Origin: a virus
Lineage: Duplodnaviria; Caudoviricetes
IMG/VR virus record: IMGVR_UViG_3300025706_000001
Location: 32,001-96,000 of that record
Reading direction: 5' to 3' (one strand)
DNA length: 64,000 nt
The notes below the pieces were generated by a model, which worked only from the letters and a program-made list of their open reading frames with translations, was not told where the DNA came from and did not search any database. This document shows, piece after piece, positions 3,399 through 61,910 of the stretch. Within the stretch, counting starts at the first letter, position 1. Each line of letters opens with the position of its first letter. The translations under genes were made by a program, and so were the position numbers.

Positions 3399-5057
3399 CT
3401 AGGCTATCAAGCTGTCGTCGAGCGTTGGAACGGCTGCCGTCGGGATCAGAAGATCCTTTGATCGCAGGTCAAGTAGGCGGTTTAGCCATTCGTGCAAAAG
3501 ACCCTGGCGTCCGTTACTCACGGCAATCGTCACCTCGTCCTCCAGCTCGAACTCAAGTGGCCCACAGAAGCACGCCAAGTAAGGTCCGCCGACGTACAGC
3601 CGCGTGGCCGCAATCATGCACAATTCGTCCAGGAATAACGACGTTCCGGTGCTCAAGGCCGTGGTGAGCGACACCCGCAGGTACACGGCGCGGGGTAGGG
3701 TGGTTGGGGTGTGAAAGAAGCCGTTGCAAGCCGTGTGCGAAGCGTCCAGGGTGGTCAGGTCCGTTGTGAACGAATTGGACGTGCCTTGGTCGTCTTCCAC
3801 GTTGTCGCCTGAATCGCCGTCAATCAGGTCCACCTGAAGCACTCCGGCCGCAGGAGTCACGTCAACGCAGGCCCAGAGATTGAAGGCGTAGCAGGTCTTA
3901 GCGGAGAGCGAGACTGGCACCAGCAGGGACGTTAGTTCCGAGCTGTTGCCGGTAATTTTTAGGCACCTCGCGCCTCTGGCTACATAGGCACTTCCAGGGG
4001 TTGGCGTGGCGATGGTGATCGTTGGCGTCCCACCTGTCAGCTTGGACGTGTAGGTCAGCGTAGTTGGGTTGGTAACGCCCACGAAGGTGACGGAATGCGT
4101 CAGGTTTGGGCTGGTCCCTGTGGATGACACGGTGACACTGGCCAGGAACGGGAGGGTTCGCAAGGCCGTCTGCACGGCAGAGGCCGTAGCGTTGTAGGCC
4201 AAGGGCGCGGTTGTGTGGCTTCGGCCGTACTTGTCGGTGAACGTCAACGTGTAGTGCCCGGCCGTTGGCGTGCCGTTAATCGTGACGATCTGGATTTCCA
4301 CGTCCGTCAATTGGATCGTCGTGCCCAGCGTGCCCGTTTCGACAACCCATCCGTATGGCAGGTAGTCGGCGACGGTGCTTTCGGTTTCCATGTCGCCGGT
4401 CGTGATTTTGTTACCGGACGCAGCCGTAGATGTAGTGACCGTGGCGGTCGCCCCCGATCCGCCCGGCCATGTCGGATCAAGCAGCGACTTACTCGGTTCG
4501 CACGTAATCGTCCAGGTTGCCGTGCCGGACGTATTAGCAGAAGTGCATCTAGCACGAATGGTCTCGGCGTAGATGAACTCGTTGACACGCCCATCACCGC
4601 GCTGATCGCAGAACACGAACTTCCCGTTGCCGGTGTTGTCGCCAGAGGTTCCAGAACTACTGCCAACGCCTTCGCCGTAGGTGATCGAGTAGCCAATCGT
4701 GGATGCTTCAACGGACTCGCCGTTTTCGATCATCTGTTCGATCAGTTCTTCCAAGGAAGCGTTGATCGTTTTGGCGATGGACGAGTTGTCTGCGTAGACC
4801 GTTTCGATGATCAGGTTCGTGATCGGGTCGGCGACCAAGGTCGAGAGCACTCCGCCGATGGTTGTCAGTGCGTTGTCGATGGAGTCTTCAAGACTGCCGA
4901 TGACCGCTTGTCGAAAGTCGCGGGCTTCGGTATCGAGTTCGTCCTCGAATGCACGGATGTCGGCGAGCACTTCCGTATCTACGGAAGCAATCAGATCGTC
5001 GGCAGCGTTGATGGCCTTGCCGAGGCGAGTAAACAGGGTGGTGAAGTTTATGGTCAT
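3399..5057 (-). CDS. Tail structural protein
   Basis: 552 aa, Thr/Gly-rich. Contains the 'QIVTINGTPTAGHYTLTF...TAPLAYNATASAVQTAL' module common in phage tail proteins. Confidence 0.6.
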   Translation of the reverse strand: MTINFTTLFTRLGKAINAADDLIASVDTEVLADIRAFEDELDTEARDFRQAVIGSLEDSIDNALTTIGGVLSTLVADPITNLIIETVYADNSSIAKTINASLEELIEQMIENGESVEASTIGYSITYGEGVGSSSGTSGDNTGNGKFVFCDQRGDGRVNEFIYAETIRARCTSANTSGTATWTITCEPSKSLLDPTWPGGSGATATVTTSTAASGNKITTGDMETESTVADYLPYGWVVETGTLGTTIQLTDVEIQIVTINGTPTAGHYTLTFTDKYGRSHTTAPLAYNATASAVQTALRTLPFLASVTVSSTGTSPNLTHSVTFVGVTNPTTLTYTSKLTGGTPTITIATPTPGSAYVARGARCLKITGNSSELTSLLVPVSLSAKTCYAFNLWACVDVTPAAGVLQVDLIDGDSGDNVEDDQGTSNSFTTDLTTLDASHTACNGFFHTPTTLPRAVYLRVSLTTALSTGTSLFLDELCMIAATRLYVGGPYLACFCGPLEFELEDEVTIAVSNGRQGLLHEWLNRLLDLRSKDLLIPTAAVPTLDDSLIA

Positions 5058-55018: not shown

Positions 55019-55855
55019 CTAAAGGTTCCTGGTAATCAGGAACTCGATGTTCACGTCGTTTGCCTGATTGCGGCTTGCCATTGTCCGCCATGCCCAACCA
55101 AATTCCGGCAGATACAGGCTGCGAATCAGTGGATGATCTCCGAATCGAACCACAACCCTGGCTTGCTGAAACAGACTTAGGACTGAGGCAAGCCTGCGTT
55201 GGCCTGCTTCGTCGATTTTATGCCTGTACTCTTCGCCAGCGCCTGGCCAATTGCAATCGACGTACAGACCGTGCATTGGTTCATCTTGGCATTTTGCCAG
55301 GAAGTCAAAGGCATCCATGCAAGTGAATTCGCATCGTCGGAAGGTTTCTCCCCAGGAGTCCAGGGCTTCGATTGCAGTGCGGTAGCGGCGATTGGAGCCG
55401 CCTCCGCTGGCGTTCCAGCGGATCGGGAGGCTGCCGTTGAATTCCGAGGCTGTCCCGGCTTTACCTCCCCGTCCCATCCAGACGCAGACAAAGTAAGCCA
55501 GGGCTGCATACTGATCTGGGCACGACGGAAACGATCCGATTGGTCTGGACGCCGCTTCTTGATGCCGTGCTAACTCGTCAGGATGATACGGAAGAGCGTC
55601 TGCTTGTTGCGCGAGCCATTTTCTCGATTCGTCATCCTTAACCACACGACATAAGTTCACGACGTGTCGATGCAGGTCGTTGCACAAAATCTGTTTGGCG
55701 TCGATCCACGGAACCTCGGAACAGCCGCCACAGAACGGAATGTAGACCATTCGGCAGCCAGCAAGTAAATCGCCGACATTCCTGGCTACATCGGTGCCAG
55801 AGCCAAACCACTGGACGAATCGGTCGCTCTTTCGAGGCTTTGCCTTACTGCTCAT
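55019..55855 (-). CDS. Dam-like (D12-class) DNA methyltransferase with a variant catalytic motif
   Basis: 'WFGS', 'PFCGG.S', 'ND.....N'. Motif IV reads DCNW instead of DPPY. Confidence 0.7.
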   Translation of the reverse strand: MSSKAKPRKSDRFVQWFGSGTDVARNVGDLLAGCRMVYIPFCGGCSEVPWIDAKQILCNDLHRHVVNLCRVVKDDESRKWLAQQADALPYHPDELARHQEAASRPIGSFPSCPDQYAALAYFVCVWMGRGGKAGTASEFNGSLPIRWNASGGGSNRRYRTAIEALDSWGETFRRCEFTCMDAFDFLAKCQDEPMHGLYVDCNWPGAGEEYRHKIDEAGQRRLASVLSLFQQARVVVRFGDHPLIRSLYLPEFGWAWRTMASRNQANDVNIEFLITRNL

Positions 55856-56163: not shown

Positions 56164-56643
56164 TCACGGCCGGCTATCCTCCTGCCCTCTTGGCTCGTCC
56201 CCTTTACACGCTGGTCCATCACCGCAGCCGACTCCCGGCACCCCGGAGGATTGTGTTGTTTGATTATCGAAGTAGTCTTTGAAAGTCACTTGCGCAGGTT
56301 CTGGCAGGCGCTGAACACTGCACGATTGTAAGACCTCTTCGTCGTACCAGTCTTTGTCAAGATGTTTTTTGATCGCCAAAAGTTCAGAAAGATCCAATGG
56401 TCTGCGACGGTCCTGGGGAAACATCTCGCCGTGCTGTAGTCCGTGGCAGATTGAACACAGTGGCAGGCAAACTTCGCGGAGCAGCTTGCGGGGCTTGTTC
56501 GTTATGTGCGCCCTTTGAATCCAAAACGGAGCATTATACCATTTTGGTCTACTGTGGCCGTAGCGCCCGCACCGCCAGCAGCGGTTTCCGGTGTCTTGGA
56601 TGAAGGTCTTGTACTTGGCTTCCTGCTCTGGGGTCGTCTTCAT
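56164..56643 (-). CDS. HNH/NinG-like Zn-binding nuclease
   Basis: CWRCG...AHI...PLCSICHG.QH. Confidence 0.65.
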   Translation of the reverse strand: MKTTPEQEAKYKTFIQDTGNRCWRCGRYGHSRPKWYNAPFWIQRAHITNKPRKLLREVCLPLCSICHGLQHGEMFPQDRRRPLDLSELLAIKKHLDKDWYDEEVLQSCSVQRLPEPAQVTFKDYFDNQTTQSSGVPGVGCGDGPACKGDEPRGQEDSRP

Positions 56644-57020
56644 TGCTCTGACTCATCCTGTATCCGCTGAAGTTCTTTCCGTCGCCTTCGCCCGATCTCC
56701 GAGATTAGACGGAATTCCTCTTTGGTCAACAAGCCGTATTTGTGTGTGGCTACCAGTTCTTTGCCGGTGGCCGACAAATCTTCCTGAGTGTGGCATTTAT
56801 CCTGGACGTACTTGATGATCCCTCTGGCTAACGGCCCAAGGCAGGCGTGTTCCTTGAAGATCCGCAAGCACTTTCCACAGGTGTTCCCAAAGGGATCGTC
56901 TAGCAGTGTAAACACTCTGCCATCTGGCATCTTCTCACCGCACACGCTCTCTGTGTCGGTTTCGTAGTAATGCCAAAGGCGTCCATCAACGGAAACCCAG
57001 ATCGGCTCACTTAGGTTCAT
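56640..57020 (-). CDS. Hypothetical Zn-finger protein
   Basis: 'H.......VCG...C.KC' motif; ATG 57020. Confidence 0.5.
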   Translation of the reverse strand: MNLSEPIWVSVDGRLWHYYETDTESVCGEKMPDGRVFTLLDDPFGNTCGKCLRIFKEHACLGPLARGIIKYVQDKCHTQEDLSATGKELVATHKYGLLTKEEFRLISEIGRRRRKELQRIQDESEQ

Positions 57021-59466
57021 TCTGGACTTTTGGTGCAAAGTTGGGGTACACTTCTGCGACAGGCTTTTTCCAGTCGCCGAATTTGGGAACTCGTTGCAAG
57101 CCCCTGGTATTCCACGGGGGAGATCCGATGGCGCGGGAGTACATCCGCGCCGCAGCGCCACAGGTGCGTCCCTTGCGGGCCATGACGGCGAGGCACTGGT
57201 TCCAGTATTTCTGCTTCTGCTCGAAGCTGTTGACGACGGGCTTCTTCTTTTCCCGCTTGATTTCTTTCAGTAGGCCGCGTTCTACGGCGATGGCTCGGCC
57301 TTGACGCGATTGTCGTGAGCCACAGTTCGGACAGACGGGCATTCCAGAGTAGGCACATCCGCAGGTCGTGCAGATGATCGGTTCCTTGGTTCCACCTTCC
57401 TTGCGTTTCTTCTGGTATTCCTGGTCGATGGACCGGGATTTCTCCAGCGGCCACTCGATGTCTTCGTCGGGGAAGCCGTGGGCGACGACGCCGCCCGCAT
57501 GATCCAAAATTATACAGTTGTGGACGAGGCAATCGTTTGCGGTGAACCTCTGTAAAGGCCCTGCATTGAGAATGTCCCATACTTCCCTTTTGGCTTGCAA
57601 GACGGACGGTTCCAGCGAGCAATTATTTCTTCGTCTGTCATCTGCAAGAGAATCAAGTGTTGAAGAGTTGCGTCTGCGTACCGAATCTCTGGGTAATTTG
57701 CTCGGAAGCTGACAAGTCGTTCCCGAGATCCGCGATTTCTCCTCGTATTGTTCTGCTGCTGAACATTGTTGGCCCACCGCAAGTTTCCCGGTTCGTAATG
57801 CCCCATGTTGTCGATTCTGTCGATCGTCCACTCTCTCCCATGAATTCCAAGATTGTCCGCAATCCATTGAGCGGCTGCGTTTGGACTTGAGAACCTGAAC
57901 TCGACTCCACGGGCACCGTACCGATAGTACGCATAAGACTCCACGTTTTGGCACCTGTCCTGCTGCGACTGACATCGTTGATACAGCCATTTCGGCACTT
58001 TCACAGGCACTCGTGGCGTACACTTCGGACACGCCCTTGTATTGGGTCGCCTGCGCATATTGTGGTATCGACTCATGTAGACAGTTCCGCACTCCGCACA
58101 CTTGACTTCGACAAGCAGGCTCCAGGATGTGCCCTGTGTTTTGCGTGATACGATGGTCAGTGACCCAAACTGGGCACCCACCAGATCCGCTCTTAACAAT
58201 CCGCAGTCGTCCACTAGCCGCTTCGGAGATACTTTTCCATCCTTCATTGGTCATTACCCTGTGGTCTGGAGTAGCAGTAAGCCCGTCGTATGACATCACA
58301 GACTGCACGCCTTTACAAACAGCGCCGCCGTGACTAACAAAGCGTACACCATCCCACACCTTGTGGTCAAGAGTAATATCTTGTATTTCGACCAGTCCTA
58401 ATTGAGTAAGGATAAGTGACCCTCTGGCTATGCAATCCTGCTTTCCTTCAAATGGTCGTAATGCACGTCCGCACCTTTGTCGATACATGACCAGGGAGCG
58501 GCACGGGGATGCAATGACAACGCAAGAAACTTCTGGAACGTCGATTCCGTATGAGCATATATTGACATTGCACAGCACTTGAATCGCCCCTGATTTCAGG
58601 TCATCAAATGCTTGGGCGCGTTCATCGGAAGGCGTGGTGTCATCAACATGTGCCGCTCGAATTCCTGCTTTGAGAAATTCGTCTCGCAGGTGAGTGGCAT
58701 GAGATTGGGTTGCCCCAAACACAAACGTTTTGCGGTCGCTGGCAAGGCGAATCCAGTTTTCAACGATGTCGCCAACGAGCTTAGGCTTGTCCACTCGCTT
58801 GGCAGCTTCGGACTCCCATTCAATTGAGCGAACGCCTTTCATGTCCGGCGCGTGACCCAGGAACACCCTGGCCGGCACTAGGAATCCAAGTTCTCGCAAT
58901 TCCTCGTAGCCTGCGGCAGTCACGATGCTTTCCCAGAAGTCGCCCAGTCCCTTGCCGTCTGCGCGTCCTGGAGTCGCAGACAGGCCGAGTGTGACCATGC
59001 CTGGATTCTGCTTCTCGATTTCCAACATTAAGGCCATGAAGCGAGGGGCGGCTGACAGGTGGCATTCATCGACCGCAAGTACGTTTGTCTTGGGGATCGG
59101 TATTTTGCTGCGGCGCACAGCACGATGATGCAACGTATCCTTGGACACCACCAAACATTCGCTGCCGGCCATCTGTTCACCCAGTCCAGCAGCAATGAAC
59201 GAATACTTGATATCGCAGTCGATCAAGTGCTCGGCTGTCTGACGAAGAAGTTCTCGTCGCGGGGCCATGAACATCGACAGCGAGCCGCGATTAGCAGAGA
59301 GCTTTATGATACCGCACGTTAGGGTGGTTTTTCCCGATCCCGTCGGCGAGTTGATGATGATCCGCCTGCGCCCCTTCCTGATCTCGTCTCTGACCTTCTC
59401 GATCAGGTTGCACTGGTACGGGCGAAGACGTTTACTGCCGAGGTCGAGTTCAGAAAGATCGGTCAT
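57007..59466 (-). CDS. SF2 DExH helicase (RadD/YejH-like) containing an intein
   Basis: LRPYQ, PTGSGKT, DECH, LSATP, GIDVP, QRCGRALR, LDHAG, and a C-terminal Zn finger. Confidence 0.9.
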   Translation of the reverse strand: MTDLSELDLGSKRLRPYQCNLIEKVRDEIRKGRRRIIINSPTGSGKTTLTCGIIKLSANRGSLSMFMAPRRELLRQTAEHLIDCDIKYSFIAAGLGEQMAGSECLVVSKDTLHHRAVRRSKIPIPKTNVLAVDECHLSAAPRFMALMLEIEKQNPGMVTLGLSATPGRADGKGLGDFWESIVTAAGYEELRELGFLVPARVFLGHAPDMKGVRSIEWESEAAKRVDKPKLVGDIVENWIRLASDRKTFVFGATQSHATHLRDEFLKAGIRAAHVDDTTPSDERAQAFDDLKSGAIQVLCNVNICSYGIDVPEVSCVVIASPCRSLVMYRQRCGRALRPFEGKQDCIARGSLILTQLGLVEIQDITLDHKVWDGVRFVSHGGAVCKGVQSVMSYDGLTATPDHRVMTNEGWKSISEAASGRLRIVKSGSGGCPVWVTDHRITQNTGHILEPACRSQVCGVRNCLHESIPQYAQATQYKGVSEVYATSACESAEMAVSTMSVAAGQVPKRGVLCVLSVRCPWSRVQVLKSKRSRSMDCGQSWNSWERVDDRQNRQHGALRTGKLAVGQQCSAAEQYEEKSRISGTTCQLPSKLPRDSVRRRNSSTLDSLADDRRRNNCSLEPSVLQAKREVWDILNAGPLQRFTANDCLVHNCIILDHAGGVVAHGFPDEDIEWPLEKSRSIDQEYQKKRKEGGTKEPIICTTCGCAYSGMPVCPNCGSRQSRQGRAIAVERGLLKEIKREKKKPVVNSFEQKQKYWNQCLAVMARKGRTCGAAARMYSRAIGSPPWNTRGLQRVPKFGDWKKPVAEVYPNFAPKVQNEPK
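57510..58247 (-). CDS. HNH homing endonuclease nested in a shifted frame within the intein
   Basis: 'DLVG.QFG.LTI', C..C pairs, 'Y.RYGARGV', 'TIDRIDN.GHYEPGNLRWA..QQQNN.R'. Frame differs from the helicase (offset 1219 nt). Confidence 0.85.
   Translation of the reverse strand: MKDGKVSPKRLVDDCGLLRADLVGAQFGSLTIVSRKTQGTSWSLLVEVKCAECGTVYMSRYHNMRRRPNTRACPKCTPRVPVKVPKWLYQRCQSQQDRCQNVESYAYYRYGARGVEFRFSSPNAAAQWIADNLGIHGREWTIDRIDNMGHYEPGNLRWANNVQQQNNTRRNRGSRERLVSFRANYPEIRYADATLQHLILLQMTDEEIIARWNRPSCKPKGKYGTFSMQGLYRGSPQTIASSTTV
57517..58434 (-). mobile_element. Intein (306 aa) in the helicase after motif VI
   Basis: Junctions GKQD|CIARGS...LVHN|CIILD. Block B 'ATPDHRV', block F 'VWDI', block G 'RFTAN..VHN'. 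Confidence 0.9.
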
Positions 59467-59472
59467 TAGTTT

Positions 59473-59760
59473 CTACATCGTTATAGAGTTAGAGAACTGA
59501 AACCGTTCCGCTTCACGCGGTAACTTGTTCCACAGTTCGATGGTCTTTGACTTGTCCGATTCGCACCACGTTGCTACGAATCCGCAGTTCTGGCAGTCGA
59601 TGAAACAGACTCCAAACATCGACATCAAACGCGGCGAGTACGATTCCCACGGGCCTGTTCGTCCTCCCATTCTGCGAACGTGTTCGTCGTAGGCATCGCG
59701 GTCGAAACCACACGACGGGCATGGCTTCAACTGAGTGTATCCAGTGGCATCAGTTGACAT
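59473..59760 (-). CDS. Lar-like restriction alleviation family protein
   Basis: LKPCP.CG ... C..CG ... I..WN. Confidence 0.65.
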   Translation of the reverse strand: MSTDATGYTQLKPCPSCGFDRDAYDEHVRRMGGRTGPWESYSPRLMSMFGVCFIDCQNCGFVATWCESDKSKTIELWNKLPREAERFQFSNSITM

Positions 59761-60674: not shown

Positions 60675-61910
60675 TTACTTCTTCCCCTTAGTCTTGGCTT
60701 GGTAGTCCCGGTACGTCCACGCCGGCATGACGCCCGACGCTTGGCACCATCCACACGACTGGCCCTTCTCGTCTTTCTTCTTGCCCTTGCACGCCGGGCA
60801 GACCACAGCCGGCTGACAGTTGCCGATAGCCTGGGCGTAGTCCTTCAGGTCATCACAAAGTTGTGAAAGCTCTTTGATCCAGTAGGGCGTCTTTTGGAGG
60901 TGGACCTTAGCTTCAACGACGATCCGCTTCAGCGTCTTTTCGGTTTGCTCATACCATCGGTTCATTAAGACCGATTGCAAGGCGGCCGGGATCTCCTGCT
61001 TGGCCGCGTCCTTCGGCGGGCCGTCGAACTCGCCCATCGCTTGACCCAGGGTGCGGATTCCGTTTTTGCCGATCAAGGCCACGATCTCGCGCTGCTTGTC
61101 CATGTCGTACTCGGACAAGCGGGTGATCTCGGCTTCACCCGGCTTGATCTCGTTCTTCAACTGGTCCTTGATGTTGGTGGCAATGTTATCCCAGGGGTCT
61201 GCGTCGGCCTTGGGTTTGGACGCCTTCTTGGGCGGCTTGCGCAGATAGCCGCGTTTCTTCATGGCGGTCTGGAGATTGGGTGCGTTGCCAACCCTGACAT
61301 CGCGGGCGATTTCCTCTTGCTTGCTGCGTTCGAGCGTGGCCAACTTGCGAACCGCTTCGTCGGTGCCCTTGATTTGTCCGGTCTCGATCATGGCCGCGAT
61401 CTTGGACGGCATCTTTTCCAGGGCTTCGGCGAACTTGCCGTCGCGCTTGATCGTGGATTCGTCCACGCCCGTCTCTTTGGCCACGACCTCGGCCGTCGAA
61501 CTGCTGTTCGTCTCGGCCAACAGTTCAGTCTGGCCTTTTGAACGGTCACCGCCCCGCTGGCCTTTGATCCGGTTGTATCGCATCCCGCGCAACTTGCGAA
61601 CGGCGGCTGGCTGAAGGACGTTGCGGCGATTGTACTGGTGGTAGAACACCCAGTCTTCGGCGTCGTCCAGGTTGTCGATTTCAGGGAATAGCTTCGTCTC
61701 ATACTTCTTCAAGCCATTCTTTTGGATCAGCTTCCACCGCGTCATTCCATCCAGAATCACATCCCTGCCGTCGATTCTGGCGTACACAATTGGGTCCAGG
61801 ACAACCTTGTCGTCAATCAAGTTTTCTTCCAGGCCGTCGAGCTGTTCCTGGGTGTGGGCTGGAAGGACTTTGACGAGGCGGGGATCAATCACGAGGTCAG
61901 GAGTCGGCAT
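60675..61910 (-). CDS. ParB/Srx N-terminal domain protein with HTH and a C-terminal CxxC finger
   Basis: 'L.E.L....DPI......ILDG.TR', 'RRN', 'GGDR', 'VAKETGV..STI.RD', 'CPACKG...C.WC..SG'. Confidence 0.75.
   Translation of the reverse strand: MPTPDLVIDPRLVKVLPAHTQEQLDGLEENLIDDKVVLDPIVYARIDGRDVILDGMTRWKLIQKNGLKKYETKLFPEIDNLDDAEDWVFYHQYNRRNVLQPAAVRKLRGMRYNRIKGQRGGDRSKGQTELLAETNSSSTAEVVAKETGVDESTIKRDGKFAEALEKMPSKIAAMIETGQIKGTDEAVRKLATLERSKQEEIARDVRVGNAPNLQTAMKKRGYLRKPPKKASKPKADADPWDNIATNIKDQLKNEIKPGEAEITRLSEYDMDKQREIVALIGKNGIRTLGQAMGEFDGPPKDAAKQEIPAALQSVLMNRWYEQTEKTLKRIVVEAKVHLQKTPYWIKELSQLCDDLKDYAQAIGNCQPAVVCPACKGKKKDEKGQSCGWCQASGVMPAWTYRDYQAKTKGKK

Follow-up and report, generated by a model that had tools for sequence, protein, structure and literature searches.

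A candidate HNH-like homing endonuclease gene overprinted in the +1 frame of a phage helicase intein

It has long been asked how inteins came by their homing endonucleases (the model is 'splicing first, nuclease invades later'), and nested out-of-frame nuclease genes are the predicted intermediates. Endonuclease genes lying out of frame or in antisense within inteins were reportedly proposed in 1998 by Gorbalenya (NAR). Nested genes of this kind have only just been described, as rarities. In this study we analysed a stretch of 64,000 nucleotides (nt), hereafter the window, from IMG/VR record IMGVR_UViG_3300025706_000001, a complete virus record of 128,867 bp with direct terminal repeats. The window carries a superfamily 2 (SF2) DNA helicase gene interrupted by an intein. 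With a probability of roughly 0.8, we read this locus as a composite mobile element, in which a mini-intein inserted after helicase motif VI holds, in its endonuclease slot, a complete HNH-like homing endonuclease gene on the same strand in the +1 frame. The family to which it belongs is common.

Inteins with out-of-frame EndoVII-like nucleases and with antisense LAGLIDADG and VSR-like nucleases have been found in actinobacteriophages; in that preprint from the Gogarten laboratory they are termed rare, and the authors propose that a free-standing endonuclease gene invaded the intein (bioRxiv 10.1101/2025.01.02.630785). A cyanobacterial dnaX intein carries a LAGLIDADG open reading frame (ORF) out of frame at +2 (Phillips, DeSimone and Gogarten, bioRxiv 10.64898/2026.09.14.751524), a case that reportedly goes back to Gorbalenya's 1998 proposal. 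Hidden out-of-frame HNH genes of the ShiLan type lie in phage DNA methylases (Arsenault et al., Genes 2025, PMC11855218), and in fractured genes a free-standing endonuclease gene stands between the halves of a split intein (Dassa et al., NAR 2009, PMC2677866).

Two reading frames in one intein

The helicase gene (57007-59466; this and all other features of the window described in this section lie on the minus strand) is one ORF encoding a RadD/ResIII-type precursor of 819 amino acids (aa), intein included. It matched the Pfam families ResIII (6.5e-20), Helicase_C (1.9e-18) and also DEAD, and the PHROG DNA helicase family phrog_16 (E 1.4e-77). The N-extein of 344 aa (58435-59466) ends just past helicase motif VI (...GRALRPFEGKQD). 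Directly after this motif a class-1 intein of 306 aa is inserted in frame (57517-58434; helicase residues 345-650), followed by the C-extein of 169 aa, which begins CIILDH (57007-57516, stop codon included). The Hint hallmarks are all present, namely C1 (CIARG), TPDH in block B, VWDI in block F, the terminal VHN and the +1 Cys, and C1, T55, H58, D287 and N306 were invariant among 36 homologues. The intein ends in H305-N306, and SN replaces HN in some relatives.

An AlphaFold model of the helicase-frame intein was built with a 36-sequence alignment. The Hint N-terminal half (intein residues 1-92, blocks A and B; 58159-58434) was modelled at a predicted local distance difference test score (pLDDT) of 96-98 and the Hint C-terminal part (residues 280-306, blocks F and G, ending VHN; 57517-57597) at 97. 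Between them, the central region (residues 97-273; 57616-58146) scored below 50 and is a stop-free linker predicted to be disordered. The folded part resembled the mini-inteins of RecA (Mtu), DnaB (Ssp) and DnaE (Npu) with a Foldseek probability of 1.0 (best E 4.7e-4). Intein-bearing PHROG families matched the first ~90 residues only, and no family in the Pfam and PHROG scans matched beyond residue ~91.

In the same DNA the +1 frame has 246 open codons between a stop at 58253 and the one at 57510-57512. In the rest of the helicase gene it is interrupted every 30-80 codons, and over the open stretch the third frame holds nine stops. The overprinted ORF (57510-58247, stop included) encodes a 245-aa HNH-like homing endonuclease candidate. 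Its ATG lies three codons past the block-B His, and its TAA stop is made by C-extein codons 2-3. Residues 21-216 of the protein matched three PHROG HNH/restriction-endonuclease families (E 1e-20, 2e-18 and 3e-15), the named matches being phrog_374 (1.2e-20) and phrog_3377 (1.7e-18). The PHROG HNH families matched the +1 frame only, and the intein-N families frame 0 only.

The AlphaFold model of the HNH-frame protein, built with a 41-sequence alignment, reached a mean pLDDT of 85, with residues 10-215 above 90; the ~25 C-terminal residues, whose codons overlap blocks F and G, scored below 50. By prediction, intein residues ~72-92 (~20 codons) are structured in both frames. The neighbours of the HNH-frame protein among the predicted structures of BFVD were phage proteins named HNH, AP2 or homing endonuclease (E 3e-13). 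A Cys4 zinc ribbon (C50, C53, C73 and C76; 58020-58100) is invariant or nearly so in the 41 sequences and gave weak Pfam zinc-ribbon matches. The beta-beta-alpha core (residues 141-168; 57744-57827) carries the motif DRIDNxGHYEPGNLRW...N, and DSSP placed its strands at 141-144 and 156-159 and its helix at 161-168. N155 is invariant and N167 and D143 are near-invariant in the same alignment, so that the structural Asn and the metal-binding helix residue are both present. The initial annotation had placed the intein and the nested ORF at these coordinates, with the nested start at block B and the stop just past the C-terminal junction, and had described normal splicing blocks around a centre without a recognisable domain; each of these points was borne out.

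Selection acts on both frames. Against the closest relative of the window (L174, 88% nt identity), substitutions in the centre of the intein numbered 56, 15 and 11 at helicase-frame positions 1, 2 and 3, respectively, and thus pile up at the wobble position of the HNH frame. In the C-extein the pattern returned to 5, 3 and 14, and all indels were multiples of three. Only six pairs of loci had nt identity >=70%, hence the closest pair was used together with an all-pairs positional profile. In a codon alignment of 20 loci, the most variable base was the helicase-frame third position in the exteins and in intein residues 1-76, the HNH third position at intein residues ~77-291, and the helicase-frame third position again from ~292 into the C-extein. 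Purifying selection acts on the +1 frame over intein codons ~77-291, and this shifted frame holds a real gene, as had been claimed. Median aa identity to the window was 35% in the flanking N-extein and 29% in the flanking C-extein, compared with 66% for Hint-N and 81% for Hint-C in the helicase frame; the central DNA gave 25% in the helicase frame versus 51-65% in the HNH frame. Overall, the intein and HNH were about twice as conserved as the exteins.

The helicase frame is in turn held open by selection. A helicase-frame stop is possible only where a T-ending HNH codon precedes a codon starting with AA, AG or GA. This context was never used (0/7,914 over 142 loci), and third-base T elsewhere amounted to 25.9%; the helicase frame is therefore kept open purely through synonymous choices in the HNH frame. 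When the central 191 HNH codons were shuffled synonymously (n = 200), the shuffles had a mean of 7.15 helicase-frame stops and 0 of 200 were stop-free; the number expected from shuffles was 7-10. The constraint is very clean: avoiding a single dinucleotide context across codons suffices to keep the host frame free of stops, and the nuclease pays nothing for it in amino acids.

The nested ORF also has a conserved start signal. In the window, two HNH-frame stops, TAA TGA (58251-58256), stand directly before the start and bar read-in from upstream in that frame; they are followed by CCA and then by the ATG (58245-58247). A Shine-Dalgarno (SD)-like AGGGT (58256-58260) lies 8 nt upstream of this ATG. 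The ATG was at the same place in 19/19 loci of the close helicase clade, and RRGGT (AGGGT, GAGGT, AAGGT or like) followed by 8 nt and ATG was found in all but two of them, both exceptions having TTGGT. Copies of the polymerase clade, mostly in Firmicutes prophages, have a strong AAGGAGGT or AGAGAGGT plus 8 nt before the ATG. Overall, 99 of 134 loci (74%) had an SD-like 4-mer within -18 to -4, compared with 31% at random host-ORF positions. The conserved ATG and SD-like motif favour internal initiation over frameshifting, and these sequence features support the separate translation of the HNH-like protein that had been suggested for the locus.

A 2018 activated-sludge metatranscriptome (run X4) yielded two contigs identical to the window, covering only 57469-58320, which is approximately the nested ORF without the helicase flanks. 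Transcription and transcript ends cannot be read from contigs, and DNA was possibly present; no expression is therefore claimed from this run.

Distribution, host genes and annotation

The HNH-frame protein had 263 homologues in the clustered protein collection, mostly of 238-241 aa. Scanning by sequence pattern confirmed the family in 390 IMG/VR stretches and in 125 stretches from species-representative genomes, and 149 distinct fetched loci were examined for openness of the host frame. This frame, one base upstream of that of HNH, was stop-free over the whole match in 143 of the 149 loci, and the other frame had a mean of 10.7 stops. The open host ORF had a median length of 874 aa, and among the embedded copies HNH was always in host frame +1. 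The initial annotation had the intein frame kept open so that the helicase still splices; the openness under selection holds across this sample. Among the six exceptions, L061 has the same architecture with one internal indel, and the others resemble free-standing copies.

The carriers are phages and prophages, and their HNH frames, 28-65% identical, are uninterrupted in at least ten phyla, including Bacillota, Actinomycetota, Pseudomonadota, Chloroflexota, Acidobacteriota, Planctomycetota, Lentisphaerota, Chlamydiota, Ignavibacteriota, Synergistota and others. At E <=1e-10, a profile search of the whole library returned 55,595 clusters. In many of the best 150, the match stopped at profile position ~171-214, short of the tail that reads intein block F in +1, which suggests that the superfamily is mostly free-standing.

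The interrupted genes are unrelated to each other, 75 loci lying in ResIII/Helicase_C helicases and 68 in family-A DNA polymerases, the latter interrupted at Pfam profile position ~213. In the HNH tree, a clade of five polymerase-borne copies was nested among the helicase-borne ones (SH-like approximate likelihood ratio test, SH-aLRT, 95%). Pairwise identities of Hint-N and of the HNH core were correlated (Spearman 0.53, and 0.65 within one host type), which would fit co-inheritance as one unit, with kinship inflating such figures. An intein-less helicase (L180, 507 aa) shared 60-69% identity in the N-extein and 42-52% in the C-extein with the intein-bearing helicases and was colinear with them on both sides of the site. 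The break falls at residues 350/352, where the intein-bearing genes carry ~945 extra bases, and the L180 alignment spans the point at which the N-extein of the window ends. The empty-site junction between GGAAAGCAGGAT and TGTATAATT had been predicted correctly.

In one clade of embedded copies (L075, L078 and L079) the host ORF, ~760-800 aa long with a C-extein beginning CIDYADN, matched neither the helicase nor the PolA references. The host ORF of L075 had no Pfam match. To judge from these sequences, the ORF of this clade may be a third host gene.

We lean slightly towards regarding the overprinting as old and stable, and not as a brief stage towards an in-frame or a split intein, one mini-intein/HNH composite having spread, always in +1, through helicase and PolA genes of phages from at least ten bacterial phyla without an in-frame derivative ever becoming fixed. 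If true, separate translation of the nuclease would bring a lasting gain, for example independent dosage or timing or freedom from interference with splicing; no other known family of non-canonical inteins would be as abundant, and databases leave most of it unannotated.

This points to an annotation gap, in which either the nested nuclease or the host gene is lost: gene callers reported the host gene only, or dropped it for the nested ORF. Carriers from cultured or isolated sources include Streptococcus phage Javan113 (L178, MK448670.1, 892-3774) and Gardnerella phage vB_Gva_AB1 (L179, MW387018.1, 871-3774). Both have the intein and the +1-frame HNH inside the DNA polymerase I gene, and their GenBank records annotate the polymerase coding sequence only ('DNA polymerase I'), leaving the nested ORF invisible. 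In L001 (2004-4455) the 817-aa helicase was missed by the gene caller because the nested 239-aa ORF was called instead. In L002 (1155-3497) the gene caller split the helicase into pieces, and a single in-frame stop interrupts the intein N-domain between TDRG and VEIE. Prophage carriers were found in the cultured strains Centipeda periodontii DSM 2778, Acetobacterium carbinolicum DSM 2925 and Clostridium homopropionicum DSM 5847. Cultured carriers allow direct tests of splicing, internal initiation and homing.

Function and expression of the nested protein

In the mechanism that we propose, ribosomes in the helicase frame would read straight through the intein, and the central ~185 codons would be translated into a disordered loop. 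Folding together, the Hint halves (residues 1-92 and 280-306) would splice this loop out, yielding a helicase of 513 aa. A second set of ribosomes would start at the internal ATG (58247) from its own SD-like site and produce a free 245-aa protein, predicted to consist of an N-terminal beta domain, the Cys4 zinc ribbon, the beta-beta-alpha core and a helical C-terminal DNA-binding part. During mixed infection the free protein would cut or nick the intein-less helicase allele near the junction of ...GGAAAGCAGGAT and TGTATAATT..., and repair would copy the intein and the nuclease gene together. As to origin, the initial annotation supposed that an HNH gene invaded a mini-intein out of frame; invasion by a free-standing gene would fit the large wider superfamily and two free-standing paralogues in the same phage. 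The paralogues lie outside the window, one as an ORF of 272 aa (L176, G000:C1:20937-21170) and the other as an ORF of 291 aa (L177, G000:C1:97433-97900), which adjoins an SMC-like ATPase gene.

Several observations weigh against this interpretation. Since one of the two scan patterns, KPKG[KV]YGT, is what intein block F spells in +1, embedded copies are over-represented in the sample. The N-extein of the window had no relative above 30% identity in IMG/VR, and with no close helicase relative found, recent homing into this genome cannot be shown. The AGGGT of the window is a weak motif whose bases also belong to helicase-frame codons and are constrained by them. The general-base His of a D-H dyad was looked for at the end of strand 1 and was absent, its place being taken by R144, which is invariant in the 41 sequences; a near-invariant H150 of the embedded clade lies six residues further on, in the following loop. 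The core motif of both paralogues, DRID..NG.YEPGN.RWAT, has no His at all, not even one corresponding to the nearby His150. The Pfam HNH models gave no match to the HNH-frame protein even at E 10, and the best match among solved structures, the HNH enzyme PacI, was weak (Z 5.0, root-mean-square deviation 3.5 over 77 residues, span 79-168). Finally, translation of the nested ORF, its nuclease activity, splicing and homing are all steps that we infer.

Against PDB, Foldseek with the whole HNH model found no match at E <=0.001, solved-structure sequences searched by profile yielded zinc-ribbon noise only, and nothing relevant emerged when the HNH core, both paralogues and eight distant members were scanned against Pfam. 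In the Protein Atlas, the HNH-frame protein found only unnamed viral clusters, a few of them with NUMOD modules, which we take as a lead only. Because of the lacking Pfam match, the weak PacI match and the D-R dyad, the protein is named HNH-like here and its nuclease activity is treated as presumptive. The shifted frame had been said to encode a 'complete HNH' endonuclease, which the missing Pfam HNH match and the Arg at the dyad His position qualify.

The same features feed the alternative that we regard as doubtful but worth keeping in mind, namely that the shifted-frame protein is translated and is not a homing nuclease. It would then be an HNH-derived DNA-binding protein, inactive or dependent on a partner, which hitch-hikes in a vertically inherited intein. 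The D-R dyad in 41/41 aligned members, the paralogue motif without His, and the poor agreement with Pfam HNH models and solved HNH nucleases would all be expected from such a protein. However, a hitch-hiker sits badly with an intein and HNH that are about twice as conserved as their exteins, with the occurrence of the same unit in two unrelated host genes, and with the existence of a related helicase that has no intein. D143, N155, N167 and H150 are moreover conserved, and the PHROG and BFVD neighbours are annotated as homing endonucleases.

An explanation that we consider improbable is a programmed +1 frameshift, which would join the N-extein and Hint-N to HNH, or a pair of shifts that would rebuild an in-frame HNH intein. 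The frames do lie +1 apart on the same strand, and homology changes frame near the ends of the Hint halves. But two HNH-frame stops stand directly before a conserved ATG with its SD-like site, and the strict avoidance of helicase-frame stops over the whole overlap would be needless if ribosomes left that frame. A single shift would also truncate the helicase, and no conserved slippery site was noticed around the start, no search having been aimed at one.

Still less credit can be given to the idea that the HNH frame is a decaying relic of an in-frame HNH intein, displaced by two compensating frameshifts. In-frame HNH inteins do exist in phages, as cited in bioRxiv 10.1101/2025.01.02.630785. 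A relic, however, would not be under purifying selection, would not stay open at such low identities across so many phyla and would not keep its start signal, and no true in-frame fused relative was found. The only long forms were three: two broken by single indels and a third that looks similar. P0121 (L182, ~3150) and P0122 (L061, ~3880-3900), which are called as 'helicase-HNH fusions' of 640-644 aa, were rejected as true fusions, since in each of them one indel in the overlap shifts helicase and HNH together, a sign either of decay or of faulty sequencing. P0186 (639 aa) resembles, by appearance, a third single-indel case.

That compensating indels of assembly or sequencing displaced a normal in-frame HNH has next to nothing in its favour: a contig at a depth of ~300 in the probable source run matched the window exactly, three contigs from an independent 2022 activated-sludge run of another study and year (57300-57897, 57980-58339 and 58395-58592) covered both frame-switch zones with 0 differences and 0 gaps, the arrangement is common to 143 independent assemblies, and an error would leave the stop-free helicase frame unexplained. 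The check for compensating indels that the initial annotation had called for thus refutes an assembly error, and we return to the composite of mini-intein and nested HNH-like gene as the preferred interpretation.

At 57403-57480 of the window, a contig of a second, diverged helicase gene, departing from the window on both sides, was found in runs X1 and X5. It has 6 differences in 78 bases in one run and is too short to judge the presence of an intein. A related phage coexists in the same samples.

Near the helicase gene, weak Pfam matches below the gathering score were obtained on the minus strand for a D12-class adenine methyltransferase (55019-55855), a Lar restriction-alleviation protein (59473-59760) and a ParB N-terminal domain (60675-61910). 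A 159-aa ORF (56164-56643) has CxxC...CxxCH motifs reminiscent of small HNH proteins and had no family match.

Comparison with known systems

The initial annotation presented this architecture as a departure from the normal in-frame arrangement; it is not unique, since out-of-frame endonucleases in inteins are already in the literature. In the literature that we searched, there was no description of this HNH-like family in helicase or PolA inteins.

A close likeness is to the EndoVII-type inteins of actinobacteriophages (bioRxiv 10.1101/2025.01.02.630785), which also combine intact splicing blocks with a same-strand endonuclease gene in another frame and are predicted to be disordered when read in frame. 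Their nuclease is of EndoVII type (IPR004211) and encoded in frame 3, whereas the protein of the window belongs to another, HNH-like family, lies in frame 2 and has no Endonuclease_7 match. The hosts of non-canonical nucleases given in that preprint are DNA polymerase (pol III alpha), minor capsid, terminase and thymidylate synthase genes, compared with the SF2 helicase and family-A polymerase genes of the present family. The architecture is termed rare there, whereas this family was confirmed in 390 IMG/VR and 125 species-representative stretches. In the in-frame phage HNH inteins, known from 1997 work cited in the same preprint, the nuclease is a domain of the intein, whereas in the window it is a separate ORF.

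The dnaX intein resembles the present one in having an overlapping ORF under purifying selection, a relaxed intein frame, a disordered in-frame region and SD-like motifs upstream of the nested start, and a secondary invasion of a mini-intein has been proposed for it as well. It differs in its nuclease type (LAGLIDADG, not HNH-like), in its frame (+2, not +1) and in its setting, a cellular gene of one phylum as opposed to phage replication genes of many phyla. In the ShiLan type, an out-of-frame HNH is likewise hidden in a phage gene that remains free of stops in its own frame, and the way in which the hidden ORF is translated is an open question there. The ShiLan insert has no splicing domain and therefore remains in the host protein, whereas the HNH of the window is flanked by a complete Hint domain. 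Fractured genes share an endonuclease gene of free-standing type at the endonuclease slot of the intein, short coding overlaps and the model of mini-intein invasion. Their host gene is split into two ORFs joined by trans-splicing, whereas the helicase of the window is one continuous ORF of 819 aa and the host frame is continuous in 143 of the 149 loci.

In conclusion, the phenomenon is of an already described kind, and the family found in the window is a new and unusually widespread case of it, not a new principle.

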